A stretch of DNA of 64,000 nt from Sphyrna mokarran (lineage: Eukaryota), in assembly GCA_024679065.1 (NCBI GenBank), contig JAGIQG010000004.1:35588001-35652000 (forward strand). The letters run 5' to 3'. The notes under the pieces are model-generated. The model was not told the origin of the DNA. It searched no databases and was given only the letters and a program-made list of their open reading frames with translations. The position numbers and the translations under genes are program-made. Positions 27,211-51,200 of the stretch are shown one piece after another; the first letter of the stretch is position 1; each line of letters starts with the position of its first letter.

Positions 27211-27345
27211 GTTCTAAAGTATGAACTGTGCAAAAGATCACAATGTTTTTTCCACTTTAAGGCACAGGAATTTGCTTGTAGTTCATGTATTAGATCAAAT
27301 AATTTACATGTTCCAACAAATGCATTACAAAGAAAAAGGGAAACC

Positions 27346-27351
27346 TTTATT
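27346..27351 (-). terminator. Probable polyadenylation signal of the NCOA5-like gene
   Basis: AATAAA on minus strand ~0.8 kb past the stop, followed by a U/GU-rich tract. Confidence 0.55.
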
Positions 27352-28155
27352 AAGTTCAAACACCTACTTATTCTTCAGTTGTTACAGAAGACATCCCTTT
27401 AAAATATTATCACATTGTAACACACTGAGAACTAAGGTTTCTGAAGTGATTGTGGGTTTTTCTCCCTCTTCCTGCAAAATAATTAGAAACTTCATTAACA
27501 GAGGTGTATATCAATACATTAAAGAAATTAATTACTTTAATTGGGATATACTGAACATATTGTTTCTCATCAAATCAACGCAGCACTGTTACAATGCTCA
27601 GTACAAAAAAAGCAGTCAAGTGAACAGTTGTACAAATCTGGCCAAGATAATACTGTACGGTGATATTTACTCAGTTACTCCTGTTGATATAATTGCTTTT
27701 AGCTACAGAAAGATCCACATGTCAGAGTACTTTAAGTCTCCTTAAAGAAGTATCACCATACAATAAAATCTTTGAAAAAAAGTTCTCAAAACAGAATGGA
27801 GAAATAGTTAACAAGCATCTAACAAATGAAACAACCACCGCGAAAGATACATTTATCAAAGGTTTCTTCAACCCTTTCAAAACCATTCATGGCGACATTT
27901 AAAAGTTACAAAAAAATGGTCCTTATACATGACATTGGGCATACACCTTCAAAAAGGAACTTGAACTTACAATGGGATCCTTCTAAAATGCTAAAATACT
28001 ACAGTTTAAAATTCAGTCTGAGACTATTCATCAAGGTGTTTGCTGTATTCGTTCGGTGTGGTGTCTTGTACTTCTGGTGCTCTTCAAACAATGTTGTGGA
28101 TATACAAACTTTTCTTCAAAGCAGGGTGAATTCTGATGCTTCAAGTGGTCATTCC

Positions 28156-28196
28156 TTACTGCAGTGGGAGTCTAGCACCTAGTTTTAATGGATGAC
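28156..28196 (-). CDS. NCOA5-like: NCOA5-like terminal coding exon (GHPLKLGARLPLQ*)
   Basis: Acceptor TTTTTTCTGTTATAG, phase 1, TAA stop, downstream AATAAA. Confidence 0.6.
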
Positions 28197-31100
28197 CTAT
28201 AACAGAAAAAATTTTTACTTCCTGTACATGAATCTCCACACAATCATGTTCATGCTGCATCATTTTACAATGTATTTTAAAAAGCAATAAAGGCTGAAAG
28301 CACAGGGCAAGTTCATTCATAGCATCTCAATATGAATCATCTGGTGAACCTTCACTGCATCTCCTTGAAGCAAGTACGCCCTCGCATGCATAGAGACACA
28401 AAAATGGTGCAGTACTTCAAAGGTGTGGTCTCATCAAAAGGTCTCATTTCAGAAAGAACTTTGTTCTTACCCAAATCGCCATATTTAACATCCATTAGCG
28501 TTATTTTCTATTCTTCCTACCAAAAAGAGCAATTTAATTTTTCCTCGTCACTCAATCTGTTCTTCCTTTGCAGCTTTCTATCATCAGCAAACTTGGATAG
28601 ATCAGTCCCCTCAGCATAGTTATCAATATAGACCATAACTAGCAAAGACTAAGACACTGATCCTTGCCAAACCCCACCAGTTACAGCCTGCCAACTCAAA
28701 AACAACCAATTTAATTTTGCAGTTTGCATCACTGAGAGTATCCAAAAAAGATCAGAATTATCAACATTGAATTTCTAAACAAATAATTGTTTTTGTAGCT
28801 ATGCTTTGAGCTCCTTGTTTTACTGATTACTTCAGTCAGTTTCTGTATATTCCGTCTTTTGTTCCTCCCAGAAGCTCCAGCTTTATTTATTTTTTCATTT
28901 GTTAATCCATTTATATTTACCTTTACCTCATCAGTTGCTAATTCTAAAAATGTACTTTTTCTGTACCCTCAGCTTTTATTTTTATAAATATAAAGGATAC
29001 ATTTAATCTATTGATGCATTCTCAAATCCACTTGCTTCAAATTGTTCCTTCACTTCTTTTAAATTAGCCCCTTTAAAGATGCAAAAATAGCTCCCAGCAT
29101 TTGGTACATTTGAAGTAAAGATCATGGCCCAAACAATTCAGGTATTAGGATTATTGGAAATTGGATACAATTTGGGAGATGGATGTGAAGACTCTGGAGA
29201 TCCTGATACATACACATGTGCTGAAAATTTCCTTGAAAAGTTTAAATTACTGATTTCCACTGCCCCAGAACCCATCGTGAATGTCATGGACATTGAGCTG
29301 AATGAACAAAGCCTTCCAGAGTTCATAAATTAGATATTAACTAGCATAAGGTAAGGGATGGGGCTAGCATAACTCAGAGCACTATGATGGACTCCCCAAA
29401 TCATCTCAGCTCTAACCTGACCACAGACTCAATCATTGAAAGACTTGAAACATAAAATACTTGCTTAAATATTTGGCAGCTACTGTCATGGCAAGTTGGA
29501 AAACGCCCTATCTTTGTTCATCTATTTTTTGTGTTGTCTTCCTTGTGGATGTCTGACTGACCCAACGATCCTTCAACCAGGACGGGATGTCCAAGTTGAA
29601 AAATTGCAAAATGGTTGGGTTGTAGAAATCTTCATAGGCAGCGTCAACATGTGCACCGACACTGACATCAGTGTCGTTAGAAATGGGCACATGTTAAATC
29701 TGATCATTCTGTAATATTTCTCCACCAAAAGTAAAAGACCTGCCGTTTTCTGCTCCTTGTCAAGACATGGATCAAATTAAAAAACCTAGAAACCTATTTA
29801 GGAATATAGTCATTAAATAGAAAATAGACTGAAGTCATTTTTCAGCTGTTGAAAATTTGCTGGTGTTGCTGAGTGAAAATATAGTAGTTGAAGTAGTTCA
29901 GATAGTTACCACAAAATTGTGTGGATTTTTAACCACAACATGACAATACAGGAAACCATAAAGACATCCTTGAAATGTAAAGTTATTACTCTGAAAAAAC
30001 ATGCTCAGAAAATGACAATGATAAAGTGTAACATTCTAAAAGTTAGGCAGAATGCTGAAGATGAAGTAACTGGGAGAAAAATGCTAACCTGGAGCTGGCA
30101 AAAGGGCCCTGATTGGCCGATCACCCAAAAGTGGAGGTTTTTTCTGAGAAAGAGGTGCATGACCCAAAAGGGGTGGCCTGCCTGGTGTTGGAAGAAGGGG
30201 TTTAGGCTTGCTGGTGGGTTGTGCAACAGCGCCAACATCATAGTAACCTTCAGTTCCAGCGGGTTGAAGAGAAGCTGGAAAATAAAAGTTTAAACCATAA
30301 GTTTACACTAACACAGTTTGCACCCAATTTAAATCTTTTAAACACAATTCTACTTACTGCTGTTAATGTTTAATTCAAATTGCTGTATTTTGCACATTAA
30401 CTTGATGTTATCAGAAGACTACACAAGTAAAAAATCAATAACATTCTATAGATGATAAAGTACAATTTTTTTTTTTTACACATCCAAGATTAGAATAGAA
30501 ATTTAGTGAAGAAGGTCCCAAATAAGTTTCAATGTTCTTTTAGAAAGGAGCTGGATGCATTGAATAAAATAATGGAAATTGCAGCTACGCAATGCAACCA
30601 CTTCAAATTAACCATATAAAAATTGCACTGGAATCCTGAAATATGCTCACTTACCTTCATGTGGCCATTGATAATTTTCAGCTCCCCCTTCCTGAAAGTT
30701 TTGCCAATTACTGTTTGCCTCTATCAAAACAAATAAATATTGGGTTTGCAACAATCAAAAGTAACAACTTTCAAGGCATAAAAGAACAGAAATCAAGGCT
30801 CCAAGCCAGTGATTCAAATCAATAAAAAACTATAGCAGATATGCCCAAGCTGTATACCTAAAGCTACATATAGTCTGACCCCTTGGCGGTCTGGATAAAG
30901 CTTACAGAACAGAATTCTAATTGTGCTTATATTTCCCAGTCATCAAGTTTCAATGTTGTGCTTTGGAAGTTTTCAGCATGGGTGGACAAATCCTAAAATC
31001 TAAATACAAGGTGTGTTAATAAAAGCAACTTGAGATAAATATAAATTTCTTGGAAAATGGATTTAAATTACATGAGTATTAATGCAGTACACGGTTCTCT

Positions 31101-34100
31101 CTTTAGTTTCTGACATGCACTTATCAGAAACGGAAAACCACCAGCAGCTATCTACCACTGATCTATACTTTGCAGGATTATCCCCATGAAGTGAACATGA
31201 AGCCAATCTTTTTGTATTTGGAGCAGGCAATCTGATTGGTCTGCTGAGATCCCTAATTCAATGTTTAGTGCCAAGAAAGAAGAGCCTGCTAATAAACCTG
31301 TTATTGTATTTTGAGCATCAATGCAACAATAAGCAAGAGATTGTTACCAGCAATGATCAGAAAAACAATCTAGCAGCTCCTTTAACGACATGGCACTGAT
31401 CAGTTGTAATCTTTAGAAATTCAACCATGTCTCAATGTATCTTACCTATGAGATTTCTGAACAATGTTAACCAAAGAAGTGCTAAGCCATGATGCTATTT
31501 TCCATAAATGGCACATATAATAATCAATCTATATAACAGCTTGTAGTAATAAACAGCATTTATAATATTTAATGTTAGCAGTGAAATTATTTTCAATAGA
31601 CAACTGCTGAAATTGAGTGGATTCCAGTAATATGGACTCTGTACGCAGACAGAATTATTCATTCTTAACTAACCTCCTTCAAGATCCTCTTTTCTTTTGT
31701 TCAAATAGTCAACCACTTTTTGAAGCTCTTCTGCATAAAGATGCTTTCCATCACCTAGCAGAAAGAGAAGATGCCGAATGCTGCTTGGCACAACGTGACT
31801 TTCATCATAAGATTCACGATGAAGGTAATCATCTGCCAAATTTGCTGCTTTGTGAGCAATCTCAAGTCGTTCTTTCTCCAAATTTTCACCAAATATGCGT
31901 TGGTGCTCACGAGAAATCAGGTCCAAAGCATCTTCCAAAGGCATATTGCGATGTTCTGCTCAAGAAAGGTAACTTTATTTTTGATCTGATTGGAAAACTC
32001 TTCAGTGAGTTAAGTACACATTTTTATAATTTACTAGCATATATTTGGAAATAAACCAACACACTCACTGAGATTTCAACAAAATGTAATGAAATGGAAT
32101 TAGGGTAACAGAGGCTAGCATTGCTGTCTCAGTGCCAGAGACCTGGGTACAATTCCTGGCATGAGTCATTGCCTGTGTGAAGTGAGCATGTTCTCACTGT
32201 GTCTGTGGGGGTTTCCTCCAGGTGCTCTGGTTTCTTCCCACAGTCATAAAGACATGCTGGGTAGGTGCACTGACCATGCTAAATTCTCCCTCAGTGTACC
32301 GAAACAGAGTGTGGCAACAAGGGAATTTTCACAATAACTTCATTCTAGTGTTAATGTGAGCCTACTTGTGACACTAATAAATAAACTTAAACTTGATGAA
32401 AAAACAGCCAAGGTTTTTTTTTTAATGGACGCAATGAAGACACATAAAAACTAAGATTTTTCATTTACATAGTATGGAAGTGCTCAGGACACAGACTGCA
32501 ATCCAAATCAGCCTTCATATGAATCATAAGCTTCAAAGATTTTTAAATTTTGCATATGGCAAACTATATAACCCTTGGGAGCAGAAAACAAAATGAGAGG
32601 AAATTTAAGAGGTACTTCTGTGTATGCATGTGTCTCTGCAGGGAAGGACTTTACTCTTTGCGAATGAAAGGCTTATGTCACGTGTGCATTAGAATAAAAG
32701 TATTTGTGTATATCAAATCTTATTGCAATTTCTGTACAATAATGCTCGTGCCATACAAGAGCTTTGTTATATTTGATATATTCCAATACATAAAGATGGG
32801 GTGCCTCAGTTATAGGTTGAGTCAGGCACAGGGTTTTGACACAATGAGGTGATGAACTGTCTGAGGATGAAAGATATTATCGCAATGTTCTAAGAAACAG
32901 TAAACAACTAGTGAAACAATGCTTTAAAATGAAAGCTCTCCGAATCTGCAGATTAATTTTATTACTGATGAGAGTTTTTAAAAAATAGGTAATTGGAGAA
33001 AGTAACTATAATCCTAATTTTGAAAAGTTAGATATAGCATAGGGAAAGTTCAATGCCTTTAATTAGGGAAGTGAAAACAAAATTTAAGATCCTTCTATTA
33101 GCTGCCCAGTGATGCCTGGGACTTTAACCACATGGATACCATGAGCTTGTTAATGACAAATCCTTAGATTGAACATGATTATACATATTACTCAGGTTAA
33201 AAGAACCGTTATTTAGACAACAGAACCCATACCACAATGACAAGTGAAAAAACTACTATTCATATCAATACCAGCTTAAGTGACAGTGATGAGCTGATCT
33301 GAAAATAAAATAATCATCTCTCTTCACTGGAATGAAAATAATATGAAGGTTTACTGCAACAGTTTTGAGATTAATAATCACATCCTGCAAGTTTTGCCCA
33401 ATGCAAAAACAAAGTAACTTATTTTCTACCGACTCAAGATACTGCATATTAAATATGGTGTCTAGGAAAATGGATTTTGGTCACATAATCTCACAAATCT
33501 CATATTTACAAGGGATAAGGAATCTCAGTCTCGGACAGACATATGGCACGTGATATTAACTTTTTGCAGTATGGTTAGACCAGATTTTCAGTGAGCTGCA
33601 AGTTGAGCCAAATAGTTAAGTACCAAACAAAACATAGGAAAAATAAAAAGAGCTGAATATTATATTTGAGAGAGTGCAGAAAACTGTAGTACATGGAGTA
33701 CAGAAGGATTTGTAGGGGTTGAGGGATGCTGTCCTCATGCATAATTCAGGAGGTAATAGGGATGGCAAATGGAATTTTGGCTTTTACTTAAAAGGCAATT
33801 GAGTAAAAAAAATTGAAAGCCTCGCTAAAACAATACAAGACACTAGTTAGATTGCACAGGCAATCCCTTGAACAATTTTGGTCCCCTTATCTAAGGGGGC
33901 AGTCCAGAAAAAGTTCACTAGGTTGATCCCAGCTATTGAGGGATTTCATGAGGTTGAGCCTGGACTTATTGAGTTTACAAGAATGACAGGATTCTCCGAG
34001 GGCTTGACAGGGTAGATGCTGAGAGCTTGTTTCTTCTTGTGGAAGAGTCTAGGACCAGAGGCCATAATCTCAGAGTAAAGGGTCGCCCATTTAAGATAGA

Positions 34101-37100
34101 GATGAGAAATTTCTTTTGAGGGTAGTGAATTCTTTACCGCAGAAAGATGCAGAGGCTAGATCATTATGTTCATGGACAGATTTTTAATCAGTAAGTGCAT
34201 AAGGGTTATGGGGATAAGGTGGGAAAGGGGAGTTGAGGAATATCTCATCAGTCATGATGTCATCTCATTGAATGGCAGAGCAGACTTGATAGATCGAAAA
34301 GCCCATTTCTCCTCTGTCTTGCGGGCTTCATTACTCAAAACACCAAGGAGTAAAACAGTCAGTTCAAAATATTCAGACATTCTCCCTTAAAAGCAGAAAT
34401 CCACCAGCATGTTGTTTCTGTATCAAATAATAAACTGCACATGATGCAAGAATCAGTTTCAAATTTTTTTCCTAGTTTAAAAAAAAAATCAAAATACTTT
34501 GGAAAGAAATGCCTCAAAGCCACATGAAGAATGTAATTTGCCTCAGGAATAATGAGCGTTAAGTTAGATAAAAACACCACAAAGATCTCCATGAAAACAT
34601 AAGGACATCATCGAGGTTTTATATCTCAAGAATTCTAGGTGTATCTTTACAGAAAATGAATATGTACCTTTGTGGCCTGCATACAAAATAATCACTGTGC
34701 AAGACGAAAGAGACTGATGTTCTCCACCAACAACCACACAAAATGGGGAGCCTTCTTCTCGAACATCTTTCAAAGCAGTATCAAGAGCCAATTCTAATTT
34801 AAGGTACACAAGATCCACTAGAAGTCCCAGTTCTTGCACACGTCGCCCTACCAGTTTGGCATAATCCCTTAAATTGAAAGAGAATACTTTCCAGTTAGGC
34901 ACTCAAATAAGTTTGAAAATGCAATTTCACATAATTATTTTTAAAAAAAGTCACTGTAGTGCAAGACCCTAAAAGAACCACTAGGTTCTAACTAAAGCAC
35001 TAGGATTTTCTTAAAACAATTAATGGACAGAACTTTGTTTAAGTTCTTAATGGTAGTGGCTTTTTCCCAAATGCATAGATATTTAAGCTCTCATTCTTGA
35101 TTATCAATGCTTTCAAAACCAAGTCTGAAGGTTAAATTTAAACAGTATTTTATAGCAAGCATTGCATACAAGAGACTAATCACAATGTAACAATTTAATT
35201 AAAATACGTTCTGTTCTTAAGCAATTTTGAGTGCAAGCTTAATGTTGGACGATACACTCAATTTAAGCTTTTAGGTCAGGTTTAAATAGCTATATATTCA
35301 ATCTCTATTGCAACATAGGATTGATTGTCAAAATTAGTGGGATGGCTAGTTAGCCAACTGGAATTTAGAATCTAGAACCGATATTCATTGAGTTTATACT
35401 TGTGCATAGAACAGAACAGAAACGACTTCATTAAATTGAACTAAACCGCACCCCACTACTTCGACAAGTAGATATTTAAAACTAGATTCCTGCTCAAAAA
35501 AATTTAGATTATGCATCAATTGCAAATAGACAAAATGCTGTTGATCATAATGAAGTGTGTCTATCAACAATCTTTAGAAGCTGGCAATTCCACAGTGGTT
35601 CCAATTACACAGGGTTGCCCATTTTTCAGCTTACAGATCATCACAACGAAACACCCTACCACTGAAGGAAGCTATCCAGGTATCAGCAACCTTTTCCCTG
35701 CAATATTAATTCTATACAACTAAAGATCAATAAATTGTGAATTTTGAACATTTCAGCTTTCTTCCCCATACCAGTTTCAAATATAATAAAACCAATTTGA
35801 ACCCTTCTCCTTTAGCCATAAAAACACCTTCTTCTCAAATTCCAGTTTATAAAATCTGGTTTAAGTTTGCTGAAAACTAGCTACAGCTGATTTCCCAGTC
35901 AACTGATTGAAGTATTACATCTGAAGTAACTAAATCAATGTAATCACAGCCTTATATAAATTCTACTTCAAAATTAAATCCTGTTTCAGGATAAGAAAAT
36001 TTGTGAAATGAACATGCATAATTTACAAATGACAATCACAAATGTTGCAATGAGATTTATTCCCTCGTAACCTTTGTGAATCCCAAGAAGTACACAAATA
36101 TTTGCTCCAGCTATCCTGTAATAAGGCAATTTTTTACTAAAGGCTACTTTTTTTTGATCTGTTGCAGCTCATAAGGAAATAAGTAGTCATGAGATTAAAA
36201 AATAATTACTCTCAAAATTCACAAAACTAAACTTGATTTTTACCAACTTATTCAGCAGCAACATTACAATATGTTCTCCAGGCCTTTTACAGGCAGATTT
36301 GGTTTCCTGGTCTGGATATAGTGCTGCATATTTTCAGCCCATATTTGCATAATTAAAGAACTATGTGGTGGCTATTTCCTAGTAAAATTTTGCTTCTAAT
36401 TCAACCTCATTCATTGCACGAATCACCAGTTGACTTAAGTACTCAAATTAACAATGTTTCAGCCCATATTATGAATTTTACAAGAAATACAATGATCCAG
36501 ATTTTGCAATTTTAATGACAACAAAACTATTACTCACTGAAACGGATATCAATACCCAGCTTCTGCATATGCATGTTTTAACATGGAAATCCAGAAGTTG
36601 CTTCCTTGCTTCTCTATAGATTATGCTGAAGTCCTTGCTTTCTTTCACAGGTGTGGACATTATTGGTTGGCCAGCATTTATTTCCCATCGCTAACTGCCC
36701 GAAGTGATGAGCCACCTTCTTGAACCACTGCAGTCCACAAGTTGTAGGAACACACATCATTGTTTGGAAGGAAGTTCCAGGATTTTGACCTTGAAACATG
36801 GAAATCTTAGCATCATGGCAGTGATTAGCACTGCTGCTGCACAATGCCAGGAACCCGAGTTCAATTTCTGGCTTGAGTCACTATCGGTGCAGAGTCTGTA
36901 CGTTCTCCATATTTGTGTGGGTTTCCTCCCACAGTCCGAAAGACACGATGGTTAGGTGTATTGCCGTGCTAAATTCTTGCTCAGCATAACTGAACAGAAG
37001 CCGGAACGTGACAACTAGGGAATTTTCATTGCAGTGTTAACAATGTAAGCCTAGTTGTGACACTAATAAATAAACTTTAAATTGACAATCTTTTGTTTGT

Positions 37101-40100
37101 CCCATTGTAAAATCTTTCAACTTTTTGAATGAGATGTAACTGGGTTTAAACTGTGTACCAACTCATAATTACTCCTACCAGCGTCTCTGACCTTGGGGAA
37201 AAAAAACTTGCAAAATGCGAAACTATTGTTTCATTTTGATAAAGAATAGATTTTTAAAATAAAAATCACTTTTTCAACAAAGTTAATTTTTCAGTTCCTT
37301 TAAACCAAGGACTATGTCCCAATTTTTATTTCATTCTCTTAAAAAGATTATAAGTGACAGATAATTAGTGGTATTTACTTCCTGGTTGTGGCCTGAGAAT
37401 TTTTCCGACATTATTGGCTGCTCAGATTACTTGATGACATCACTGTTACCACATGACTAAGACTCCCTATATATGACACTTGAACAAAATTAATACTTGT
37501 AAAACGAAATCTACACAAGAGCACAAGATTGTTGCAGGCAGTATTCTTAGTGGCCAGATGCAAACATCATTTTACCACTGACCGCAAACTCGGCCATTAA
37601 ATGGATGAACTGATAAAACTGTTTTAGAAAATTTTGCAAATAGTCTGGTCAAACAATTTTTATAGACAATTTATCTCAAAATACTAAAACGAATATCCTG
37701 CATTGCATCGAAATTAAATAATGGAACTTTAAAGCAAATGCTAAACAATAACTCACAGTTGGTTCTCAATGGCTTAGATGATTAAGGCAGTGAACAAGTG
37801 ACACACAGATTCCTAGTGTGCATGAGTTACACATTTTGTCATACGAAGGTCCAAAATGTGATCCATGACTTGAACCAACTCGGGACACATGCCCATTGGG
37901 TTATCAAGCAGAAAATCGCTGGAGCTCCCACTCTGGGTTGTTATCCAGAGATCTGAGACACACGCACAAAAAATTAGCAAGTATGGATTCACAATTAGGT
38001 CAGACCAAGTTCTACAACCTCTGAAAGCTCAAGTATGAATAATGACTGACTATCTCCAGTGGAACTACATTCCCAATCAACACCATTAGGAGTGGTGGTG
38101 AGAGGGAAATGTGGAGACCAAGAATGATTATCCTTGACGCATTTTAAAAATAAAATCTTGAGGCCTCAGTCAGAGCTCTTAAGCATAAGAATTCTTCTAC
38201 TGCTTTCCATTTATATAGAATTATATATTAATTATTTTTATGGACTAATATTCCTCCAATGATTAAGAATGAGTATGGTCCTCATACATTCTCTTCACAT
38301 GACAGCATCAAATCAGTGTCTCAAATTGCAAATCAAACCTGCATAGAAGTCAGTTTAGTGTCAATTTGCAATATGCAACAAAGAGTACTAAAGTAATATG
38401 CCAAAGGAGGTTTACCCTTGTTGTTTGCTTAGAGCTATAACTACACAGTCAGCATGTTTCTCTCTATTGTAGTCATCCTCTATCTCTCTATAGAACTGCT
38501 GATAGAGCTCATCTCGGCGACTATCCTCAGGTCTGCAGCTGTCTTCTGTAAAAGAAGAACGTACAATTAAACCAGAATAGAAGTTTTATTTTTATCCAAA
38601 TATTTTTTTTAAATCAGATTCGCATTTATGTATTGCTTTTCATGACTATCATACAATCTAAAGTGTTAAATCACTGCTATAATATGGGGAACACAACAGC
38701 TAATTTACACACAGGAAGCTCTTAAACAGCAAGGAAAATGGCATCTAAAGGATAAAAATTAGCCATGACACGAGGTATAGCTACCCCATTACTCTTCATT
38801 TATATTCACCTGAGAGCACAGCTAACTCGTTACTTAACATCACATCTGAAAGACATTGCCTCTGGCAGTACAGCACTCCCTCAGTACTGCAATGGAGTTT
38901 CAGTCCAGATTGTTAAGCTCAATCCTGCCTCAGAGACAAGATTGCTATTAACAGAGTCTCATATGACGTGGTTTGGCAAGTATTGTATTAAATACAATGA
39001 CATAAAAGTATGCCCCTTATCATAGGATGGAGAGAAGATTAGCAAACTTGTTAGAATAACATAACAGTTAATAATAAATGGTTTGCCATTTATGTATTTG
39101 GGGCATGTTAAATTTTAAATAATGCCCTACAACTTCCCTCCTGTTGGTAATATTTTCATACCTGAAGTTAGGTTTAAAATAAAGCAGTATGCTTCTTTGC
39201 TCATATCTACAATCTGGGCAACTCCAAAACTACCATGAGTTTCAAAGCAATTAACAATTATTCTACACATGTATTAACATTTTACATCTTCATATTCACA
39301 ACTCTTGACTTCCTGCTGTCAGGAAGTTTTCTTGATAGTCAATGATATGTTGTTTATACAAGTTTGTTCTCCGGTAATTACACAAACACACCACTTGGTG
39401 GCTTTCTGGCTAATCTGAACAGCTACACAATACAATTCAAAAAAATATTACGCATCTATATTATTTTCTGCTTGTGTTAAGTTTTTCTTTCATGCTACTA
39501 GTTAGTGAATAATGGGCTGGCATGCACTACCACAATGATCAGTTGCCAGAGCAACTTGGCAACTGATGCTATTGCTAAAGAAACAGCCACTGGTAACATC
39601 ATATCTAGTGAGATAAAACCTCTCAACTTCAGTCATCAACAAAGATGCTTGACATGAAGAAATCCCATCTGAAAGGATTTGTTTACACTTTCCATCATAT
39701 TTCATAAATAAAAGGATGCTGGTACCTAATGTAATTTATTGCATTTTTCCAACTTGGCAGTTTCTCAGCAATTGGGTCATTAGGCTCACTGTTCCACTCA
39801 AAACTCAAACTATGTTTTATTCTCCTCCAAGTTTGAACACTTCAATTCTTTCCTTCCACTTGCCTGCACAACTGACAACTATAAATCTCGCACATTTATT
39901 TGCCAGCCAAAGTAAATGCTGAACTTTAATACCGTGGCTTAAAGTTGCAGGCTTCAGTTTGCACTGCTAACAAACATTTGACACAGCAGCGCTATACTGG
40001 AATACATGCCTGCAGTCATTGACAGAACAATGACTCTACCCTAAGAAAACAGTCAAATGGTACATGCTATTTAACACTTTATTCATCTCGCCCCATAAAC

Positions 40101-43100
40101 CTGACAAGTAATGTTTTCTCATCAGTGAACTGCAGGACGCACACCCCACTGAGAAACATTTCCTGATATAGAACTCCAGGACATCCTAAATATGATATCT
40201 TAAACCCACTGAGCAGCAGTTCAACAACCAAGCCACCAACTTGTTTATCCCTATCATTGCACAGATTTACATGGTTCATGTCCTGCTCCACATCAGATCC
40301 CATATTTTGCCCAATCAAATAGTGCCCTCACACTGATTTGTATGTCAATGTCTCAAAAGAATCCATCCTCCTAAATTAATAAGATGAGAAAAAATAGGCC
40401 ATTCAGCCCCTTGAGACTATTCCACCATCAAATAAGATCATGGCTGATCTGGTAACGGCCTCCAATTTCCTGTCTATCTACAGCCAAAAAACCCTTATGT
40501 TTCATGTGCACTGAATATGGAAATCTCATGAGGTATACAAAACCATCAAAAAAAAAGCCAACAGAATGCTGGCTTTTACATTTAGAGAAATAGAATTCAC
40601 GATGGTACCACAGAAAGGCTACATAGCACAGAAAGCAGCCATCTGACCAGTTGTAAAAGTTTCTTCTGCAAGTGGCAATTTATGCTAGGCCAATTGTTAA
40701 TTTTAAATCTAAGCTTGATCAGGAATATGGGGAAAGGTGGGGATGGAAAGTACATGGAATGATATCTTAGGTGAACAATGATTTCACTGAATGGTAGAAG
40801 CCTCAAGAGGCTAAACAGGATACACCTGTTCCTATGTTGCTAACACCTTTCTTGAAAGGTTTATCTTGCAGACAGCCCTATCACACATCATGATCTGATA
40901 ATTCTAGATGCAACTCATCCATTAAGCCACTGCCCCCTACCTCTTCTACAAGTTACCCCATTCAACTCTTCAGATCCTCCTCCTACCCTCTCCAACTATT
41001 CTCACTTTGCCATAAAATTACAGTTGGTAATATTTTGCCATGTGCTGCACCATAGATAAACAGCAAATTTTTCCCTCATGTGACATCTATAATCATCTAA
41101 ATTTGATTCTTAGATCCATAAAAGATAGAAATTGGCAATATAAACTTTCCATGTATCCACCACCATCCAAGTAGCGGTAAGTAAAGTCTGTTTTCCAGAT
41201 CTTCAACCTCTACTGCAGAGAAACGGTTATGCTCCAACCATTTCTGTTCATCCAATTTCCAAACTGATGCACACCTTCTATTTACCTACACAGGTCAGGA
41301 TTTATTAAAACAAGGACAGAATATCTATAATGAGAACTTATGTACATCAGAGCATCCTGGTCTAATTATGTTCCACTCTTAATCCCTAATGTGTCTGATA
41401 GTTGCAATTGGTCTTGACTCATATGTATAAGACAAGAAGTATCAACTAGTTTTTAAAAAATCTGTTAAAGAAAGGTAACAATGATCAATAGTGAAGGCCC
41501 TTAAGCTAACCCAAATAAAACACTTACCAAAACAAAATCTAAATAAAATGCCAAAATCAGAATGATTACCTACAAAATTACATGCATTCATTTATAGTAT
41601 TTTAGTTAATTGGTAAAATCTTATATAGATTTGGACCACATTTGGGACTTAATTTTATTATTGCTTCAAAAATAAGCCTAGCTTCGTGTTGAAGAAAAAT
41701 GGGCTCCGCTAGTAGATTTCTAAACAACGGCAGTCATTAAACATATATTGCTTTACATGCTTTTGTCATTGTGTTTTAGATGTTTTCTAAAGCAAATATT
41801 TGGTACACCATAAACAAGCAGATGCATAACATAGTCATACCGCTCCAGGTGTAGTTGTAATCCTCTGTGCTGTAAGGCTCAGTATAACCACCATAATATT
41901 CCAACACTTCCTGAGTCCTTAAAGGGGAGGAAATAACTGATTAACTTAGATGCCTAATTTACATCCACTATTACAAATCCTTTACTTACTTTAGTATTGC
42001 TCAAAAGAGACATGCTGTCTAAGTTCTGCATGGACAAATGACTATTTAGTTACTTTGCTTTCTTTTGATGGAAATGATTTCAAGTTTTGGAGTTAACTAT
42101 TTATAAAAAAAAATTTAGGAAGACCACTCTAAAATATTAATATAGTTCTGCATTGCAAGCTTCAAAACACCACTTATAAAAATTGATTTAATTGAGCAGC
42201 ATGTACTCACCATTCAGATGAAGCTGAAAATTGAAGGTGACCAAAGATTTGATCCTAGGAGTTTGCAATGGAGGACAAACACATCGACCAAGATTTTGTG
42301 GATGGAGTGAGTGACCTTTTACACTAACTTGCAGGAACTGGAAATTTATTTTAGTGCAGTGCCCTCTAAACAAGATCTGCAATTTGTATGAATAGGGCAA
42401 GCAACTATGCATCTCCTTAATTAGACTGAGGTCTTCGTGAGCAGCACAACATAAACCAGGAATGACAAATTAGTGTATTTAAATCAATACCAAATTGAAG
42501 ATGTAATAAACAGGGAAAAAAAGCTGGGATTAAGAGAAATTAAGGATAAAACAGGTTCTTTAATTATTTTATGACTCTTCTGTTAATAATTCCATCCAGG
42601 AGTCCATTTAATCACAATGAACTATTAGCCCCAAATTTGAACCTGTGAATGTGGTCCTACTCTACAAGCCAACAGCCTTAAGTGTAAAGGCCAGAATAAG
42701 GAAGAGTCTCCAAAACATGTTAAAATCTCAAACTCCGTGACATACAAGTTGACAATTATACTGATGACCCCAAATATAAGTATTCTTAAAACTTCAGGTC
42801 ACTGTGAAGTGAACTGTATTGTATCGTGGATTGCGTGAGGACATTTCTACTTGATCTGGTTTGGATAGTATGACATAATTTCCATCTGGAATGCAAAGAT
42901 CTCAAGTAAAACAAGTCTGGGCTGTTTCCAATACATGTTTGGGTAAGTATGTTATGAGCCACACAGACCAGGAATCAACACAAGGGTTAACTTAAATTTG
43001 TCACCTCTCCTCACCAATTAGTTGCAAAGTCACTTGGATTTTGGGAATGCTCAAAGCTGAAGTGTCAAAATGGAAAATACTCCATATTTACATTTAGAAA

Positions 43101-44673
43101 TGCCAAATTTTATCCTTGAAATTAGTGCAAGTATTGGAATCAGCAGAATGATATTTATCCGTCACCTGTAAGGATCAACTCTTTCAGCTCCCAAAGGTGA
43201 TCGGTCTCGCTCTAGATCTTGCCGAGTCGAGAGGATACTATTTAAAACAGAAAACTAACTTAAGTTGGTTAGCGTTTTCATTTAAAAGAAACATTTTAAA
43301 GATCATTACCAAAGAAACTCCTTTTCAAAGCAAAAGGAGTTTGCAGGGGCTTCGAGCCAAATATTCTTGATTTGGTACAGTGCAAAAGTCGCAGGTTACT
43401 CAATGTCATCTGGTGAATCATCTTATTCAAGGTCAGAATCTACAGACTACTGTTATGATCGATCATATCCTCAAATGAAACTTTTCCTCACTCATGATAA
43501 CTATTCTATGGCCGCTACTAAAATAATTGTATGATCACCTAAGACTCAGTCAAGTTCAGTTACAATAGTATCATTAACCAACAGCTTCTTGACACACTGC
43601 TACATAAATGGGCATGAACAAAGAAACTTTGGTGATTTGTGCCTTAAGAAGAGGCGCTTAATAAAAATAAACCAGGTGGAAGAAAACAAAACACCAAAGG
43701 CTGTAATTAACATGCAGTTGTATTGAAGTGTTGATTGCAATCACCCTCAAATCTGAATGCATGGTAAAAGTGGTCTTTTCATATCACTGCTGTGAGAAAG
43801 CAGTGGTAAGAATTAATGTCCACAATGTAGTAATAGTGGGTAAAACATTACTATGACCTAGATTTGCAGTACGTTTTAATGATGGCAAATGCATCACTAA
43901 TGAATCAAGAAGCCAATTTGACCTTTACACAAGTTTTAATGAGAAACATATGCAACTCACTTCATCTACTGTCAGTATTACACTACAATAAGATACAACC
44001 CAGTCTCCTCTCCACCACCCACAAAGTCCAGAGTGAATTCTTGTTCCATTTCCCAGACCAACACAATATTATTACAAATGCAATTGAACCATCTTTGTTG
44101 ATAACCTAGAATAAACTTGTCATACCTTGGTATGGATTCTCTTGGAACATTGTACTCTGCTGTTGCAAATGAACTGGAGGGAAGAGAAAAAAATAGCCAA
44201 GAAAAATCAATGTCCAGGTCTTTGTATTAAGCCTTTTCTGCAAATTTATTCTTTCCACTATTAGAGGGTTTCATCTGAAATGTAATGACATAGAACAAAG
44301 GAACAACTAACCAAAAACACAAAAGCTAAAAAGAAAAAAAAATTTTTTTACGACATACAATAATTACATGACATTGTTTTTGCCTACTGAATAGGTTCGA
44401 GGTTTGAATCCTGAATCAGACTGAACAATTTTCATTACAAGACTTTTTCCAGCATCAGCTAGCAATATTGTAATGATCGACTGACCACTAGATTAAGTTA
44501 GAACTGAAACAAAATTTCATTAAATTTAGAATATTCACAAATATTTGAATGAAGTAATAATCAAAAACTAAAGACTTCTCTGGGGTAACAGGCATTTAAA
44601 ATACTTCTCCTTACCTTCCATCTGGGCTGGGTCTGTGTGATGGACCTCCCCTAGACTTTATCCAAGCAGACAT
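28156..44673 (-). CDS. NCOA5-like: NCOA5-family protein (nuclear receptor coactivator 5-like), ~386 aa, whole-gene span. Coding exons: 44673-44615, 44173-44126, 43237-43166, 41917-41841, 38545-38416, 34867-34668, 31955-31674, 30720-30655, 30274-30089, 28196-28156
   Basis: All introns GT-AG with consistent phases; total 1161 nt = 387 codons; core 'RRDELYQQFY..I....REKHADCVVI..KQQ / DYAKLVGRRVQELGLLVDL...SCTVIIL / EHRNMPLEDAL...KERLEIA..AA.LAD...IRHLLFLL.D.KHL.AEE..KVVDYL..RKE' aligns with the NCOA5 core as I recall it. Confidence 0.85.
28330..28720 (-). mobile_element. Decayed CR1 RT fragment (intronic)
   Basis: 'LSKFADDRKL' and 'YCT.F' remnants. Confidence 0.55.
30089..30274 (-). CDS. NCOA5-like: NCOA5-like proline-rich exon (…KPKPLLPTPGRPPLLGHAPLSQKKPPLLGDRPIRALLPAP)
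   Basis: TTTTATTTTCCAG acceptor, CAG|GTTAGC donor, 186 nt, open in phase 1. Confidence 0.8.
30655..30720 (-). CDS. NCOA5-like: NCOA5-like 66-nt exon (EANSNWQNFQEGGAENYQWPHE)
   Basis: TTTGTTTTGATAG acceptor, AAG|GTAAGT donor, open, symmetric phase 1-1. Confidence 0.7.
31674..31955 (-). CDS. NCOA5-like: NCOA5-like exon containing the nuclear-receptor box (EHRNMP…IRHLLFLL…RKEDLEG)
   Basis: ORF 31669-31944; CAG acceptor, G|GTTAGT donor. Confidence 0.92.
32110..32392 (+). mobile_element. V-SINE/HE1-like SINE
   Basis: Head, GGTTTCCTCCAGGTGCTCTGGTTTC core, CCTACTTGTGACACTAATAAATAAAC tail. Confidence 0.85.
33580..34320 (+). mobile_element. CR1 LINE 3' fragment
   Basis: 'YKTLVR', 'QFWSPY', 'SRTRGHNLRVKGRPFK' remnants and tail. 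Confidence 0.75.
34668..34867 (-). CDS. NCOA5-like: NCOA5-like exon, anticodon-binding-like alpha/beta domain (DYAKLVGRRVQELG…SCTVIILYAGHK)
   Basis: ORF 34564-34902; 200 nt between AAG acceptor and AAG|GTAC donor. Confidence 0.92.
36810..37079 (+). mobile_element. V-SINE/HE1-like SINE
   Basis: Homologous to the copy at 32110-32392, same tail. Confidence 0.85.
38416..38545 (-). CDS. NCOA5-like: NCOA5-like exon (EDSCRPEDSRRDELYQQFY…DCVVIALSKQQ)
   Basis: TTCTTCTTTTACAG acceptor, GG|GTAAAC donor, 130 nt open. Confidence 0.9.
41841..41917 (-). CDS. NCOA5-like: NCOA5-like Tyr-rich exon (RTQEVLEYYGGYTEPYSTEDYNYTWS)
   Basis: Pyrimidine tract + AAG acceptor, G|GTATG donor; supplies the needed phase 2 to 1 change. 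Confidence 0.7.
43166..43237 (-). CDS. NCOA5-like: NCOA5-like exon (SILSTRQDLERDRSPLGAERVDPY)
   Basis: TAG acceptor, CAG|GTGAC donor, 72 nt; RDRSP motif as in the NCOA5 N-terminus. Confidence 0.75.
44126..44173 (-). CDS. NCOA5-like: NCOA5-like 48-nt exon (SSFATAEYNVPRESIP)
   Basis: Strong TTTTTCTCTTCCCTCCAG acceptor, AAG|GTATG donor, open. Confidence 0.7.
44615..44673 (-). CDS. NCOA5-like: NCOA5-like first coding exon (MSAWIKSRGGPSHRPSPDG); exon starts at 44679
   Basis: TTTTTTAG|GTTAAGATG start with A at -3; AAG|GTAAGG donor. Confidence 0.7.
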
Positions 44674-45289
44674 CTTAACCTAAAAAATTGGAAAACTGGT
44701 TAAGAAAACATGGCATTGCTTCAAGGAAGTAAATGGTATGTTGGCACATACTCCATTTGGAATTCATCCAATATCCTTAATTCCTTTAGATGCACTTGGG
44801 TTTCGTAACACTAATTGTAAAGAAACTGTGTTTTATCAAAATGAAGGCTGGAAAAGAGTAGGATGCTAAACTGCACAATAAACACCAAGAGATTCACAGG
44901 ATCTAAAATACACACTTAGATAATCTATCATTCAAAAAAAGTTGTTTTTGCACTAAATACTCGTGCTTGCACTACACAGATAATAGAGTAGCACTCAATT
45001 CTGGAGCTTAAAACTAAATTGCTGTCTTTGCAATATCTTTAAATTTTTCCCAAAATTTAAACACGCTTTTCTGATATTCAGCAACTCCAATGGTTCACTC
45101 AATCAAAAAAAAACATACAACAAACAGGATTTTCCAGCTATGAAATCGTATCCATTTATAAATCTAAACAAGGTGATATAATATCCAGATTACTTCGGAA
45201 ACGTCCTTCAAGAGTCTCCAAACTTTGACAAATAACACTGAATAAATTCAAGTGTCTCAGCACACTTATTGCCTTCATTTTCACATTTC

Positions 45290-45500
45290 AGAATCATATA
45301 ATCCCTACAGTGCAGAAGCAAGCCATTCAGCCCATCAAGTCTGCATCAACTGTCTTAAGGAGCATCTTACTCAGACCTTATCGCTGAGGTCTGATATATA
45401 TAGCAACATATTAGTTGCTAATCCCCTATCCTACATATTTTGGGATACTAAGGGGAAATTTAGCTCAACCAATCAATCTAACCTGCACATCTTTGGACAT
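45290..45500 (-). mobile_element. SINE/CR1-tail fragment
   Basis: ATCCCTACAGTGCAGAAG..GCCATTCAGCCCATC and CCAATC.ATCTAACCTGCACATCTTTGGAC words. Confidence 0.6.
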
Positions 45501-47929
45501 CTTTCAAATGTTAAAAGCATCGTGCTAGACACAAATGTTATTGAACATGGATGGGCCACCAACAATTCAAATCACTTAATTTGTACTGTAGGTATACTGT
45601 AGGTGTCCTGAATTCCCAAATCAAGGGTATTGTTATACAATTCAAACTCAGGCATCAAATAACTAAAAATTTCCAATATTTGGTAGGGTGACGGATTGCC
45701 ATGCTGAGTTTCTAACATCTGGTAAAACTAATATATACAAATTCAATCATTAATGGAACCATGGAATAATATTTTGCTTCAGTTTTTAAATCTGAAACAG
45801 GAACACTGCTTTCACACTGTTACCAATACACCTAAAATTGTTCTTCCTACTTCAGATTTGTAGACTATATTTTCATAATGGAAGTTACTTGGCTTGCTAA
45901 CCCTCAAATGACAAGGAAGCTTTTGCCAATATTTATCAATTCATACATTGAGGGAATCTAGGAAATCCACACAAGTGCAAATTCCCTTTTCATGTAGAAG
46001 AAAGATCTCATTCCTCAAATCCTAGCTGCATCTGCACAGCATGGTGATAAGACAGTACAGCAGGAAAAAAAAACAATCCAAAAATGGCAGTCTACTGTAA
46101 TCTGAATATGTTATAATAGTGCTGGCCTTGTTAATGATACATCACAGCAAGAATTATATACAATCTATCACTGGTATTCTAAATTGAAGCAACCTTTGTT
46201 TCATTATCAGATTGTTTGAATTTGTTTTAATTTTAGATTGTACGTATATAGCTTATCGCTCTCATTTTGTCTATTGTTTTGATTTGTGCTCTTTTTATTG
46301 TGCATGTTACTGAGCACCCTCCTGCAATTTGCATATATCAATTAAGTATCAGTCTATTAATCCACAAATTCATTTGAGACTGGTGTATCCAATACTTCAA
46401 CTCTTCCTTTTATTCTACAACATCCCTGCGGCCTCAACTAAAATGCTTCAAATTCTGACTCCAGGCAACTTTTAAGTTTCATCCACGAAAATCAATTTTG
46501 AGTTCAAGTCTGATTAAGCATTCACACTTGCAACACCATGATCTGTGTTTTCTTGATACAGAAAATGGGAATTATAACAGAACTTTGGTAAAAACAATTC
46601 TTTAGATGCGAAATATGGTTTGAAACTAGGTTAATGCATTTTCTTTTAAATTCTATACAAAATATATATACTGGAATTGTCAAAAAGTTTGTTTCCCTTA
46701 AAGCACTGATACAAATTGGACACTAGTTACACATTCCTCTAAATAGTTAATTTCTACATGCCTAGATAGGGAATAAAGACATCAGCCCAGTTATTCCTTC
46801 AATTCCCTCCCAAGAAATACCAACTGTAAAGGCTCTACATCTAACTCACCAAAGTCCAGGAACTTGAATTTGTTTATGTATGAAGATCTATTGCTATCAA
46901 TTGAAATACTGAAGGTCCCAGAAGTCTTGTTCTAAAAGTAGCTTATCTTCAATAATAAAATAACTGTGCTTTGACAGCCCAAGTTGGAATGATGCCTAGA
47001 CAAGTGTCCACCCGTAACCAAACTCAAGGTTAATTTCAGTACAATTTTTGAGTTTTGTTACATATATCCTCCCAAAATGCATAAAACTCAAAGGATTACA
47101 ACCATCTGAACTCACCTTCTGAATGTTAATTATAAATAAGGAGACTTCTCAATCTACACTGCTGAATCTTCAAGCTTTAACAGCAGAAACCAAAGAGAGA
47201 GATTAAAGTGGTAACAGAAGGGAGTGTTATACATACATGCTAATCTAACTTTTCTCTTCAGATTTGACTGATGAGAATCTCCAACAATTTTGTATTTTTG
47301 TTGCAGCTTACCAACATTTGTAATGTTAAGTGTTTGAGAAATGCAATATCTGAATCACTTTCTAAACGAAAGTGGGGAAATCATTGATAGTGCGTGCGCG
47401 TGAATGCACTAAGTTAAAAAAAAACTCGTCCGATACCAGGTGGCTGTAACGGCGCTGACTTTGGCGACTGTTGTTCGGTGAGTTTTTTTAAAAAAAAAAT
47501 CAACAGAATAAGAGACTCGATCAAATGGGAATCTTCACAACATGGCCATCGAGTCTGGGCCGAATAAAAGTTTGGGGTGTCGCTTTCGGTCACAGAGACC
47601 GAAATAAATCGGAGCGCGGTTCGAAGCGGTGCCCCCCCCCCACAGTCGCGGGGATGAGGCGGAGAGGCCGGGCGAGCGGCTCACAAAGCCTCCGCCTGGG
47701 GCAGCAGCGGCAGCCGGGCCTGGGCCTCCCAAACAAAGGAACGTTTCCAGCCAAAATTAAACCCGGAAGCGCGAGGGACGGCGCAGCAAGACTAAAATTA
47801 AATAGAGGGTCGGTGGTCCGGGAGGCGGCAGTGTTATGGATGGAGAAACTTCCCTCCCATCATATCAAAATGAAAGCCCGATTCACCTCCTGCTGCTTCT
47901 CGCTCTCCTCTTCAGGCTGCCAACCTGAT

Positions 47930-48110
47930 CCGGAAACACAAACCAACCGCTCCTCCTCACCCGGAAACACAAACCAACCGCTCCTCCTCACCCGGAAACA
48001 CAAACCAACTGCTCCTCCTCACCCGGAAACACAAACCATCCGCAAACCACCCCCCCCCGACCCGGAAACAGAAACGAACATTTCCTCCTCACCCGAAAAC
48101 ATAAACCAGC
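47930..48110. repeat. 31-bp tandem repeat (CCGGAAACACAAACCAACCGCTCCTCCTCAC), 3 full + 3 partial/degenerate copies
   Basis: CCGG(A/G)A starts at 47930, 47961, 47992, 48023, 48062 and degenerate CCGAAA at 48093. Confidence 0.9.
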
Positions 48111-48262
48111 CGCGCGAACCTACTTCCTTTCATCTCCACCAATCGGATCACTCCTTACATAGCTGACGCCGACATCCAATCAGCGGCGGTTTTCGGAGAG
48201 AGTGGGTGGGGGAGGAGCTGGAGGGCCCGGGGGGGAGGGGACAGCGGCTGCGGACTGTGATG

Positions 48263-48287
48263 ATGAATTCTCTGGAACAAGCTGAAG
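48263..48287 (+). CDS. CNEP1R1: CNEP1R1 coding exon 1 (MNSLEQAE); an in-frame ATG also lies at 48260
   Basis: AAG|GTAAAT donor. Confidence 0.93.
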
Positions 48288-51200
48288 GTAAATGGGGAAG
48301 GAGGAGGATGGTGTGTGTGTGTGTGCGCGCCCCTACAAGCCGGTTACTCTGTAGCGCAGCCTGTCAGATGGAGAATGTGGTTGTTTTGTCTTGCAGATCT
48401 CAAAGCTTTCGAGAGGAGGCTGACCGAATACATTTCCTGCTTACAGCCGGCGACGGGACGTTGGCGAAGTGAGTATTCACTGTGTGTGTGTGTGCGCGTC
48501 CGTCCGCCCACCCTTTTCATATTTCGTTTATTATCACATGTATTATACAGTGAAGAGTCTTGGTTCCTGTGCACTGTACAGACAAAGCATACTCTTCATA
48601 AAGAAGAGGGGTACAGTCATAGCGTACAGAAAGATAAACTTAATGCAAGGTAGGTCTGTCCAAGAGTCTGGTGGCAGAAGGGAAGAAACTGTTCTTGAGT
48701 TGGTTGGTTGGTACGTGACCTCAGACTTTTGTATCTTTTTCCCCGTGGAAGAAGATGGAAGAGAGAACGGTCCGGGGTGCATGGGGTCCTTAATTATGTT
48801 TGGCTGCTTTGCCGAGGCAGCAGGAAGTGTGGACAGAGTCAATGGATGGGAGGCTGGTTTCTGTGATGGATTGGGCTGCATTCATTACCGTTTCTTGCAG
48901 TCTTGGGCAGAGCATGAGTCGTGCCAAGCTGTGATACAACCAGAAATAATGCTTTCTGTGGTATATCTGTAGAAGTTGGTGAGATACACACGTACCCTGA
49001 GATGCATACTCGCCCTCGGTGAGTATCCAGAATATGTGAGTGTCCACACTCAGTGAATATCCAAAGGGTCTGCCCTTGGTGAAAGGAGAGAGAACTGGTG
49101 GGGGGTCTAATGCTGTAATTAGAAATGGAGGCAGTTTGGAGTTGCACTTCCAAATGCACTTTGTGGTAGGAATACATTCTCCAAATAGTAGTATCAAGTG
49201 GTCCGTTAGACACTCATACAAAAGGAAGGTATTGTAGGTGCTGGAAATCTGACATAAAAACAGAATATGTTGCAAAACTGAAATTCAACCAAAAAATTCT
49301 GAGAATCTGAAATAAAAACAAGATTATGTACATTCGAAATAAAAACAAAAGGTGTTGCAAATCTGCAATGCAAACAGAAAATGCTGCAAATCTGGCCCAC
49401 CTTGAAGTATTAACTCACAAATGCTAACAGATCTACAGATTGTTTTGAGTTTTTTTTAATTTTTGTTCTCATTAAATGTGCTGCAGATTCCTTTATACCT
49501 GGTGAAATATGTTAGATTGAAGTAATCACTGTCAGGACATTAATTCAGCACAGCACCTTGCTTTTCTTCATGTATAACAACTGAAATAACATAGTAATAC
49601 AACAAAAAAAGTCACTAGGATTTTCCAAGCCTAGCTTTGAGCATCTGTGTTGTACAGGACACTGTCTACATATGTACTTGAAGGAATACAATATGAAGAG
49701 AGGCAGTGTTGGGAAGCAGAAGGACTTTGGAGTTCATAGGACTCTTAAATCGGCCTCACAGGTGGAGGATGTGGTCAAGAAGGCGTATTGTGTACTGGCC
49801 TGCATTAATCGAGGGATTGAGTTTAGGAGTCGGGAGGTGATGCTGCAACTTTATCGGACCCTTGTCAGATCCCACTTGGAGTACTGTGCGCATTTCTGGT
49901 CGCCTCACTATAGGAAGGATGTGGAAGTTATTGAGAGGATGCAGAGGAGATTTACAAGGATGTTGCCTGGATTGGGAGGCATGCCTTATGAGGATAGATT
50001 GAGGGAGCTAGGTCTCTTCTCCCTGGAGAGACGAAGGTTGAGAGGCGACCTGATAGAGATTTATAAGATGTTGAGAGGTATAGATAGGGTGGATCCTCGG
50101 AGGCTATTTCCCAGGGCTGAAATGGTCACTACGAGAGGACACAGGTTTAAGGTGGTGGGGAGCAAGTTCAAAGGAGATGTCAGGAGTAAGTTTTTCACTG
50201 AGGGTGGTGAATGAATGGAATTGGCTGCTGTCAGTGGTGGTGGAGGCAAACTCGCTGGGATCTTTAAGAGATTCTGGATGAGTACATGGGATTTAATGGG
50301 ATTACAGATAGGCCTGGTAGGTGTGGATATGATCAGAGCAACTTGTGGGCTGAAGGATCTCTTTGTGCTGTACTGTTCTGTGTTCTATGCACTCGGGCAT
50401 TAAGAAGTCAACCTCAAAGTTTTCCTCTTTCTATCACAGCCTATAAAAAAATTAAAGAACTTCTATAATTGCTAAGATGTTCAATGGCTGGAAGGAATCT
50501 CATTTCAATATTTAAGGTACAAGCAAGTGTTAGTGTAGTATGGATCATCAATATGAGCCATACAGACCAGTAACGTCTAAGGTTCAATACCCTGAGCTTC
50601 ATTGTCTTTCAATATAGATGGGGAAAAATCAGCTAGGATTTCTGCTCTTTAGCAATGTTCAGTGACAATTGCAAAATTATAATGTTGTGAACTTCACATA
50701 GGGCAGGATTAGGTTTCAGTGCAATTTTCCATCATTCTGAAGTGTATGAAAAGCTGCTTTTGATCACAAAATCCTTTCACGATTGATTAATAAATCATGG
50801 CCACTAGGGCAAAATAACAAATTTCAGCAGTGTTGTGAGACTCAATCCTAGCAAAAATCGAAACCATCATAGATCAGGCTTTCAGAAATAATTTAGAACA
50901 GAAATTGCTTGAAGCAACCCACAAAATCTTATCAATTGCCTTCTGAATCTGTAAATTACCACTCTTTGAAGAACTCAACCAGGTTTGTAATATTGGGAGG
51001 ATGGTTAGAGCAACCAGTGTGTTTGCACATTGATGATATACTTATTGCAACTATGGGTGGCATTTTCAGCCCCACACACGACTAAGAGTATCTGGTCCTA
51101 CTGAAAGTCAATGGGCCTGTGGCTGGCTCACGGAGATACTCCCACAGAGGGGTTGAAAAATCTTGGTCTATGTCTTTCACAGAGAAGCATGCACCAACAA

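Follow-up and report, generated by a model that had tools for sequence, protein, structure and literature searches.

NCOA5 has been studied as a single receptor coregulator linked to liver cancer and glucose control. The gene considered here lies on the minus strand of a 64,000-nucleotide (nt) stretch of the Sphyrna mokarran genome (the window; assembly GCA_024679065.1, contig JAGIQG010000004.1, positions 35,588,001 to 35,652,000) and is almost certainly an intact, spliced, jawed-vertebrate sister copy of NCOA5, the same gene as the group labelled 'NCOA5-like' or si:ch211-216l23.2 in other vertebrates (such as Chiloscyllium P0003, Latimeria H3AU59, and Xenopus tropicalis LOC100145527). With canonical NCOA5/CIA (PDB 1V95) it has in common an anticodon-binding-like core, helices bearing an LxxLL box, and the intron phases of the core. 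Unlike the canonical protein, it has no RNA recognition motif (RRM), few RD dipeptides, and neither of two canonical C-terminal motifs (LQxKIL and FDNPxVQKAL), and it carries an array of LLPTP and LLGxxP motifs in a tail encoded by three exons rather than by a single exon of 656 nt. Loss of the RRM together with the conserved motif tail sets this paralog apart as a distinct variant; the motif array is absent from the description given in an initial annotation of the stretch.

Two described peptide systems resemble this tail. In SETD2, the Leu pair of GKVLLPTP inserts into the dorsal/helical face of hnRNP L RRM2 (PMC8575775; 10.1101/2021.05.22.445248). The SHI motif of SETD2, recognized by RRM2 of hnRNP L/LL (PDB 7EVR, 7EVS), shares with the paralog the exact LLPTP string, a disordered setting, and a Lys just upstream, whereas the flanks differ (NAGKV in SETD2, KPKP in the paralog), the SET domain is absent from the paralog, and binding by the paralog is a prediction. 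Raver1 binds PTB RRM2 through [S/G][I/L]LGxxP (PMC3420021), and the PRI motif of Raver1 and Matrin3 occupies the equivalent face of this domain (PMC3420021, PMC4365034). The likeness to Raver1, Raver2, and Matrin3 consists of several LLGxxP copies in the Pro-rich C-terminal tail of the paralog; however, position 1 of the shark copies departs from the strict [S/G], and the paralog has no RRMs as against three in Raver1. In addition, human NCOA5 is reported to co-purify with SAFB1 independently of RNA, like RBM12B and ZNF638 (PMC10901741), and a review sets NCOA4-7 outside the p160 coactivators (PMC12863189).

Gene structure, transcripts, and selection

The gene comprises 10 coding exons (1161 nt) that encode 386 amino acids (aa) with a single terminal stop codon, and all nine introns have GT-AG borders, which bears out the intact 10-exon frame of about 386 residues proposed in the initial annotation. 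Transcript evidence comes from four public runs, each from a different study and organism, in the form of contigs that bear the label 'RNA?'. These contigs bridge all nine junctions with CT..AC ends, six of them in 4/4 runs and the remaining three (E1-E2, E2-E3, and E3-E4) in 3/4, so that every junction is bridged in at least three runs.

Exon 1 occupies 44615..44679, with the ATG at 44673 (coding part 44673-44615), and is followed by exon 2 (44126..44173; 48 nt, phase 2-2), whose counterpart is absent from the canonical gene model. Exon 3 (43166..43237; 72 nt, phase 2-2) is included in 3/4 runs and skipped in 2/4, the form without it remaining in frame. Exon 4 (41841..41917; 77 nt, phase 2-1) encodes a Tyr/acidic segment. 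The core is contributed by exon 5 (38416..38545; 130 nt), which specifies a helix running into the folded region, exon 6 (34668..34867; 200 nt in both paralogs), which supplies the bulk of the anticodon-binding-like domain, and exon 7 (31674..31955; 282 nt), which encodes a long helix and a predicted helical hairpin. Exon 8 (30655..30720; 66 nt) encodes a weakly conserved linker and has both junctions in 4/4 runs; a small exon near 29.7 kb, considered for this part of the model, was dropped because transcript contigs place the exon at 30720-30655. The Leu-Leu motif array resides in exon 9 (30089..30274; 186 nt), and the coding part of exon 10 with the stop codon (28156..28196) is defined by transcript contigs and the reading frame. 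The 3' untranslated region (27340..28155) is covered by contigs unbroken to 27500, the limit of the region compared, and candidate poly(A) signals, recognized from sequence only, lie at about 27541 and 27351. All these features are on the minus strand.

The exon pieces listed for run X1 show zero differences from the window. Twenty coding differences were found among the 40 differences listed (321 further exist), of which 19 are synonymous and one is R>K; given a synonymous share of sites of 23%, this corresponds to a binomial p of 1e-11, and the gene is under purifying selection. A shark-specific duplication, a retrocopy, and a pseudogene are rejected by the splicing, the intact frame, the tree described below, and the synonymous bias.

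Canonical NCOA5 and the origin of the pair

Two exon queries searched against the genome each recovered two NCOA5-family loci, namely the window and a gene at 28.47 Mb on another contig (C668); three candidates were scored per query, a depth at which a strongly divergent third copy could escape. The gene on C668 is canonical NCOA5. Its nine exons, of which the last is a single long one, encode a protein of 640 aa in which an RRM at the N-terminus is followed by RD repeats and the core. About 40 kb past this gene stands an SLC12 gene, just as SLC12A5 adjoins human NCOA5. The window protein shares 46% identity with this canonical protein over 196 core columns. Downstream of canonical NCOA5, an SGNH/GDSL-like frame (C668:28483058-28483780) is observed that is spliced onto NCOA5 in Mobula RefSeq isoforms; its PF13472 match (E 9.4e-5) is under the cut-off, the alignment here (63% identity) runs through stop codons, and the frame is possibly a remnant of a LINE ORF1 esterase.

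A core tree of 45 rows and 195 columns, from which the short cyclostome-like row P0158 was left out, places the window gene in a 25-row clade (support 100/99) that follows the jawed-vertebrate phylogeny and includes the 'NCOA5-like' proteins of gar, bichir, teleost, coelacanth, amphibian, reptile, marsupial, platypus, and placental species. The canonical clade is supported at 97/95 and the separation of vertebrates from invertebrates at 100/99, and the stem of the paralog is three times longer than that of canonical NCOA5 (0.55 vs 0.17). Forcing the chondrichthyan window-type genes together with canonical NCOA5 is rejected (approximately unbiased (AU) test, p 1.6e-6). The separate canonical locus and the position of the window gene outside the canonical clade thus uphold the earlier proposal of a second family member.

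Since the vertebrate rows group apart from the invertebrates and both clades hold sharks and bony vertebrates, the duplication falls after the amphioxus split and before the divergence of sharks and bony fish. The window contig (C993) and C668 both carry RB-like, three-fn2-exon, NDRG, and SLC12 genes, a result (4/4 families) that reflects a targeted choice from human 16q/20q pairs rather than a blind survey. Because these paired families and the tree both fit such an origin, the two genes probably descend from a vertebrate whole-genome duplication, in keeping with the ohnolog status that had been raised as a possibility.

Distribution of the paralog

Among the 120 of 148 homolog rows listed, 'NCOA5-like' proteins occur in sharks, rays, chimaera, gar, amphibians, squamates, tuatara, turtle, and alligator, as well as in three marsupials, platypus, many carnivorans, and a shrew. 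Primate and bird names are missing from these rows; name look-ups covered 30 of 150 representatives, and the gap is not evidence of loss. The look-ups brought in bichir, coelacanth, and teleosts (three of these proteins carry the label si:ch211-216l23.2), together with pangolin, armadillo, anteater, two whales, lemming, and guinea pig, several of which are partial or gapped. Orthologs in platypus, marsupials, and many placentals therefore contradict the suggestion of a gene retained by cartilaginous fish but lost from mammals. Full-length copies are present in gar, amphibians, reptiles, marsupials, and carnivorans; the window model is 94% identical to the Chiloscyllium protein over its length, and core identity to chimaera is 81%.

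Models from lemming (P0316-P0318), guinea pig (P0322), and whale (P0126, P0133) are partial, gapped, or fused, one of them to a rhomboid protein, which suggests decay or mis-annotation of the paralog in some placental lineages. Hagfish and lamprey possess several divergent NCOA5-family genes without LLPTP (P0138, P0150, P0155, and P0161).

The paralog is catalogued and auto-annotated yet apparently unstudied, although expression tables may well include it. Five of its identifiers led to no paper in the literature searched, which excludes subscription papers and supplementary tables, and queries on NCOA5 paralogs, ohnologs, splicing, LxxLL, and hnRNP, and on LLPTP, revealed nothing on it in the titles and abstract starts of the matches listed.

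N-terminal region

The RRM (PF00076, E ~1e-11) is present in canonical NCOA5 of a ray and in amphioxus, and this comparison shows that the ancestral NCOA5-family protein contained the domain. No RRM was detected in any of the four paralogs scanned or, at E 0.1, in the window, and six queries for a decayed copy upstream of the gene (44600-48300) yielded chance-level, mutually inconsistent matches only (best E 0.034). The loss was overlooked in the initial annotation because the comparison there was with the short mammalian NCOA5. In the vole, NCOA5 (P0141) likewise gives no RRM match, and its start falls at roughly the post-RRM exon where the paralog begins, so the family may have lost its RRM on two occasions.

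Exon 1 matches the canonical post-RRM exon: the distance from ATG to donor is 59 nt in both, the exit phase is equal, 34/65 nt are identical, RPSP stands in register at residues 14-17, and VKM corresponds to VNM. A Lys precedes the start Met in 16 paralog models with an upstream extension, although the search pattern demanded it, so that the number is illustrative and gives no rate. Exons 3 and 4 have the phases of canonical exons 4 and 5, with weak sequence likeness. Exon 3 encodes RDRSPL where the canonical exon (141 nt, phase 2-2) encodes RERSPL, and on the strength of this weak likeness (BLAST E 0.05-0.9) it is likely a relic of the canonical RD exon. RD/DR dipeptides number four in the window protein and 15 in canonical NCOA5 of the same genome. 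Taken from these sequence comparisons, truncation and erosion likely shaped the N-terminus of the paralog, which also gained exon 2. The earlier view that the RD repeats had been replaced by four short exons thus stands as regards the scarcity of RD, but exons 1, 3, and 4 appear to match canonical exons rather than to replace them.

Leu-Leu motif tail

The motif array (30090..30209, minus strand; aa 334-373) consists of KPKPLLPTP, LLGHAP, LLGDRP, and LLPAP. It lies in a tail predicted to be disordered (aa 334-376, pLDDT ~50), which is short and Pro-rich, as initially described (17 Pro in the final 96 aa), and shorter than in most tetrapod orthologs. Conservation among 38 orthologs is nevertheless 0.62 in the array, compared with 0.54-0.61 in the core and 0.14 in the linker (aa 288-333). 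In a broader set of 92 orthologs, roughly one per species, hand-picked, mutually related, and gathered by means of a profile of which the tail formed part, LLPTP is found in 88/92, LLGxxP in 84/92, and LLG[DE][RK]P in 73/92, whereas LLPTP occurs in 0/6 canonical and 0/22 cyclostome or invertebrate proteins. Conversely, the two canonical C-terminal motifs occur in none of the 92 paralogs. When the shark tail is shuffled (20000 shuffles), LLPTP arises in 0.2% of cases and the four motifs together in none. A Myc-type FBXW7 degron is unlikely, as the +4 position is Asn in 41/87 and Ser/Thr in 21/87 proteins. A protein atlas search with the tail gave no usable match.

As to possible partners, the TIGR01649 profile found hnRNP L/PTB loci in the genome, whereas the PF11835 profile gave no match there. 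Two hnRNP L-like genes, the second more divergent, are arranged in tandem at C949:10.83-10.91 Mb. The hnRNP L linker after RRM2 itself carries PALLGDHP/PPLLGDHP (59 matches in 92 long sequences), close to PPLLGDRP of the paralog. Complex prediction for shark hnRNP L RRM2 (P0323, 137-240) and the Chiloscyllium tail (P0003, 322-388) gave 0.14 and 0.09 against a mark of 0.34, in runs without alignments or controls and with a method not validated for disordered peptides.

Folded core and LxxLL box

The NCOA5-family profile matches the window protein at E 2.3e-38, and the core is modelled confidently over aa 91-290 (block pLDDT 82-98). The anticodon-binding-like domain spans approximately aa 116-215 (exons 5-7) and is recognized by PF03129 in the 94%-identical Chiloscyllium protein (E 6.8e-5). 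The core model matches PDB 1V95 (Foldseek E 3.4e-11, rmsd 1.7; VIA Z 18.2) and also class IIa synthetase anticodon-binding domains, the common fold being no proof of function. The core exons measure 130/200/282 nt compared with 124/200/315 nt in the canonical gene, with identical phases. The helical module of exon 7, folded alone, found no PDB match at E 0.001, a result that is silent on fold novelty.

The overlapping IxxLL/LxxLL box noted at the outset (IRHLLFLL; 31756..31779, minus strand; aa 255-262) contains IRHLL from residue 255 and LLFLL from residue 258, and lies within the predicted helix 253-263 of the hairpin, modelled with high confidence (pLDDT 95-97). In 110 sequences, some of them from invertebrates, its leucines are conserved jointly with two residues of the following helix, Y279 and R283, and this co-conservation suggests that the box has a structural role.

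Proposed role and alternative explanations

The reading preferred here is that of an NCOA5 sister that kept the core, lacks the RRM and the canonical C-terminal motifs, and docks on splicing factors through its Leu-Leu tail; as a whole it is tentative, and somewhat more apt to fail than to hold. After duplication, two RRM exons would have been lost and the translation start shifted to a Met at the end of the RRM. On splicing factors of the hnRNP L/PTB type, the tail would attach to the back of RRM2, its helical side, while the core would keep whatever contacts it makes in NCOA5 complexes. The protein would then be a nuclear adaptor reaching pre-mRNA via the RRMs of its partners and not through one of its own. 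By analogy with SETD2 and Raver1, such docking, and with it the role of an RRM-less adaptor, is possible but doubtful. The more specific proposition is rather unlikely: an undescribed splicing adaptor of jawed vertebrates that arose when genome duplication copied an RNA-binding protein, the copy then dropping the RRM at an exon boundary and gaining a multivalent LLPTP/LLGxxP tail that recruits hnRNP L/PTB-type RRMs.

Several observations weigh against this interpretation. The ortholog profile included the tail and hence favours tail-bearing rows; the strict PRI form [S/G][I/L]LGxxP is met by 0/2 shark LLGxxP copies (Pro at position 1), with 35/92 orthologs holding one; four otophysan fish proteins are without LLPTP; and the Thr of LLPTP also fits a cyclin-dependent kinase (CDK) site. 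As for origin, the paired gene families were picked rather than sampled blindly, without a chance rate, and the cyclostome rows have no settled tree position, so the round of duplication is not fixed. In the peptide studies, residues flanking the Leu pair of SETD2 matter and the short peptide binds at only ~12 uM (PMC8575775; 10.1101/2021.05.22.445248), and PTB binding was weaker when position 6 was polar, as it is in LLGDRP (PMC3420021).

The tail might serve instead as a phospho-regulated, Pro-rich docking region with a CDK site and ligands for WW or SH3 domains, rather than as an RRM ligand. The CDK consensus is S/T-P-x-K/R, and after the first LLPTP an R/K stands three residues past the Thr in 76/87 proteins; yet the invariant Leu pairs and LLG[DE][RK]P are left unexplained, and this account is improbable, although phospho-regulation could coexist with RRM docking as a switch. 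The retained IxxLL/LxxLL box raises the further prospect, likewise unlikely, of a second nuclear-receptor coregulator binding ER, Rev-erb, or LXR, as reported for human NCOA5/CIA. An LxxLL stands at the homologous place in 85/92 orthologs, and one report describes human NCOA5 with both coactivator and corepressor motifs (PMC5746116); however, only 3/7 canonical and 5/8 invertebrate rows share this LxxLL, and the placement of the box in a high-confidence hairpin helix, with leucines conserved alongside Y279 and R283, favours the structural role.

Competition or heteromeric partnership with canonical NCOA5, in which the common core would enter the same complexes without an RRM or the canonical C-terminal motifs, accords with the retained core fold, exon phases, and sequence identity, and RRM-less NCOA5 splice forms are described as testis-biased in spotted scat (PMC13604722). 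The long stem branch and the new conserved tail point to a separate role, however, and vole NCOA5 likewise has no RRM, so that this explanation seems improbable. A decaying duplicate with little function is very improbable. Several whale and rodent records are indeed partial or gapped, and primate and bird names are missing from the rows listed, but the synonymous bias of the shark differences, the core identity to chimaera, and the full-length genes from gar to carnivorans speak against it; decay is refuted for cartilaginous fish and may hold in some mammal lineages.

Neighbouring genes and a probable shared promoter

The neighbour of the window gene is CNEP1R1, as the initial annotation had recognized; it lies head-to-head on the plus strand (48259..61750, exon edges approximate), with a PF09771 match (E 3.7e-11) at 55581-55688 and first and last exons placed from sequence. 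Between the two genes, a CpG island (47400..48300) has a GC content of 0.55 and a CpG observed/expected ratio of 0.88, compared with 0.35 and 0.20 in 40000-47000, and is likely a bidirectional promoter common to both, to judge from composition and position. A possible non-coding exon of 59 nt, bounded by AG and GTGAGT, is seen in the sequence at 47116-47174 on the minus strand. In a caecilian model (P0046), the sole case among the stored proteins, the first-exon peptide of CNEP1R1 directly precedes the start of the paralog. This could reflect a chimeric transcript, a rearrangement at the locus, or an error in the model, and it hints indirectly that the two genes adjoin outside sharks as well. 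The gene beyond CNEP1R1 (C993, ~35.66-35.69 Mb) resembles HEATR3, with HEAT/Arm matches (E 0.014-0.042) under the cut-off. Positions 1-27000 of the window contain mainly short frames that presumably represent retroelement fragments, for example at 15032-15502 and 18288-18905 on the minus strand.

Significance

For work on model organisms it matters that zebrafish, Xenopus, dog, and cat possess an apparently unstudied sister gene, whose 'NCOA5-like' labels can easily lead to confusion with NCOA5. If the tail does not bind its predicted partners, the gene is an ordinary, already catalogued paralog. If it binds RRM2 of hnRNP L or PTB, it would provide a natural multivalent ligand and an example of a duplicate gene that gave up RNA binding in favour of docking on proteins, and the adaptor role, if true, would mean that the NCOA5 family acts primarily in RNA processing and only secondarily in receptor coregulation.

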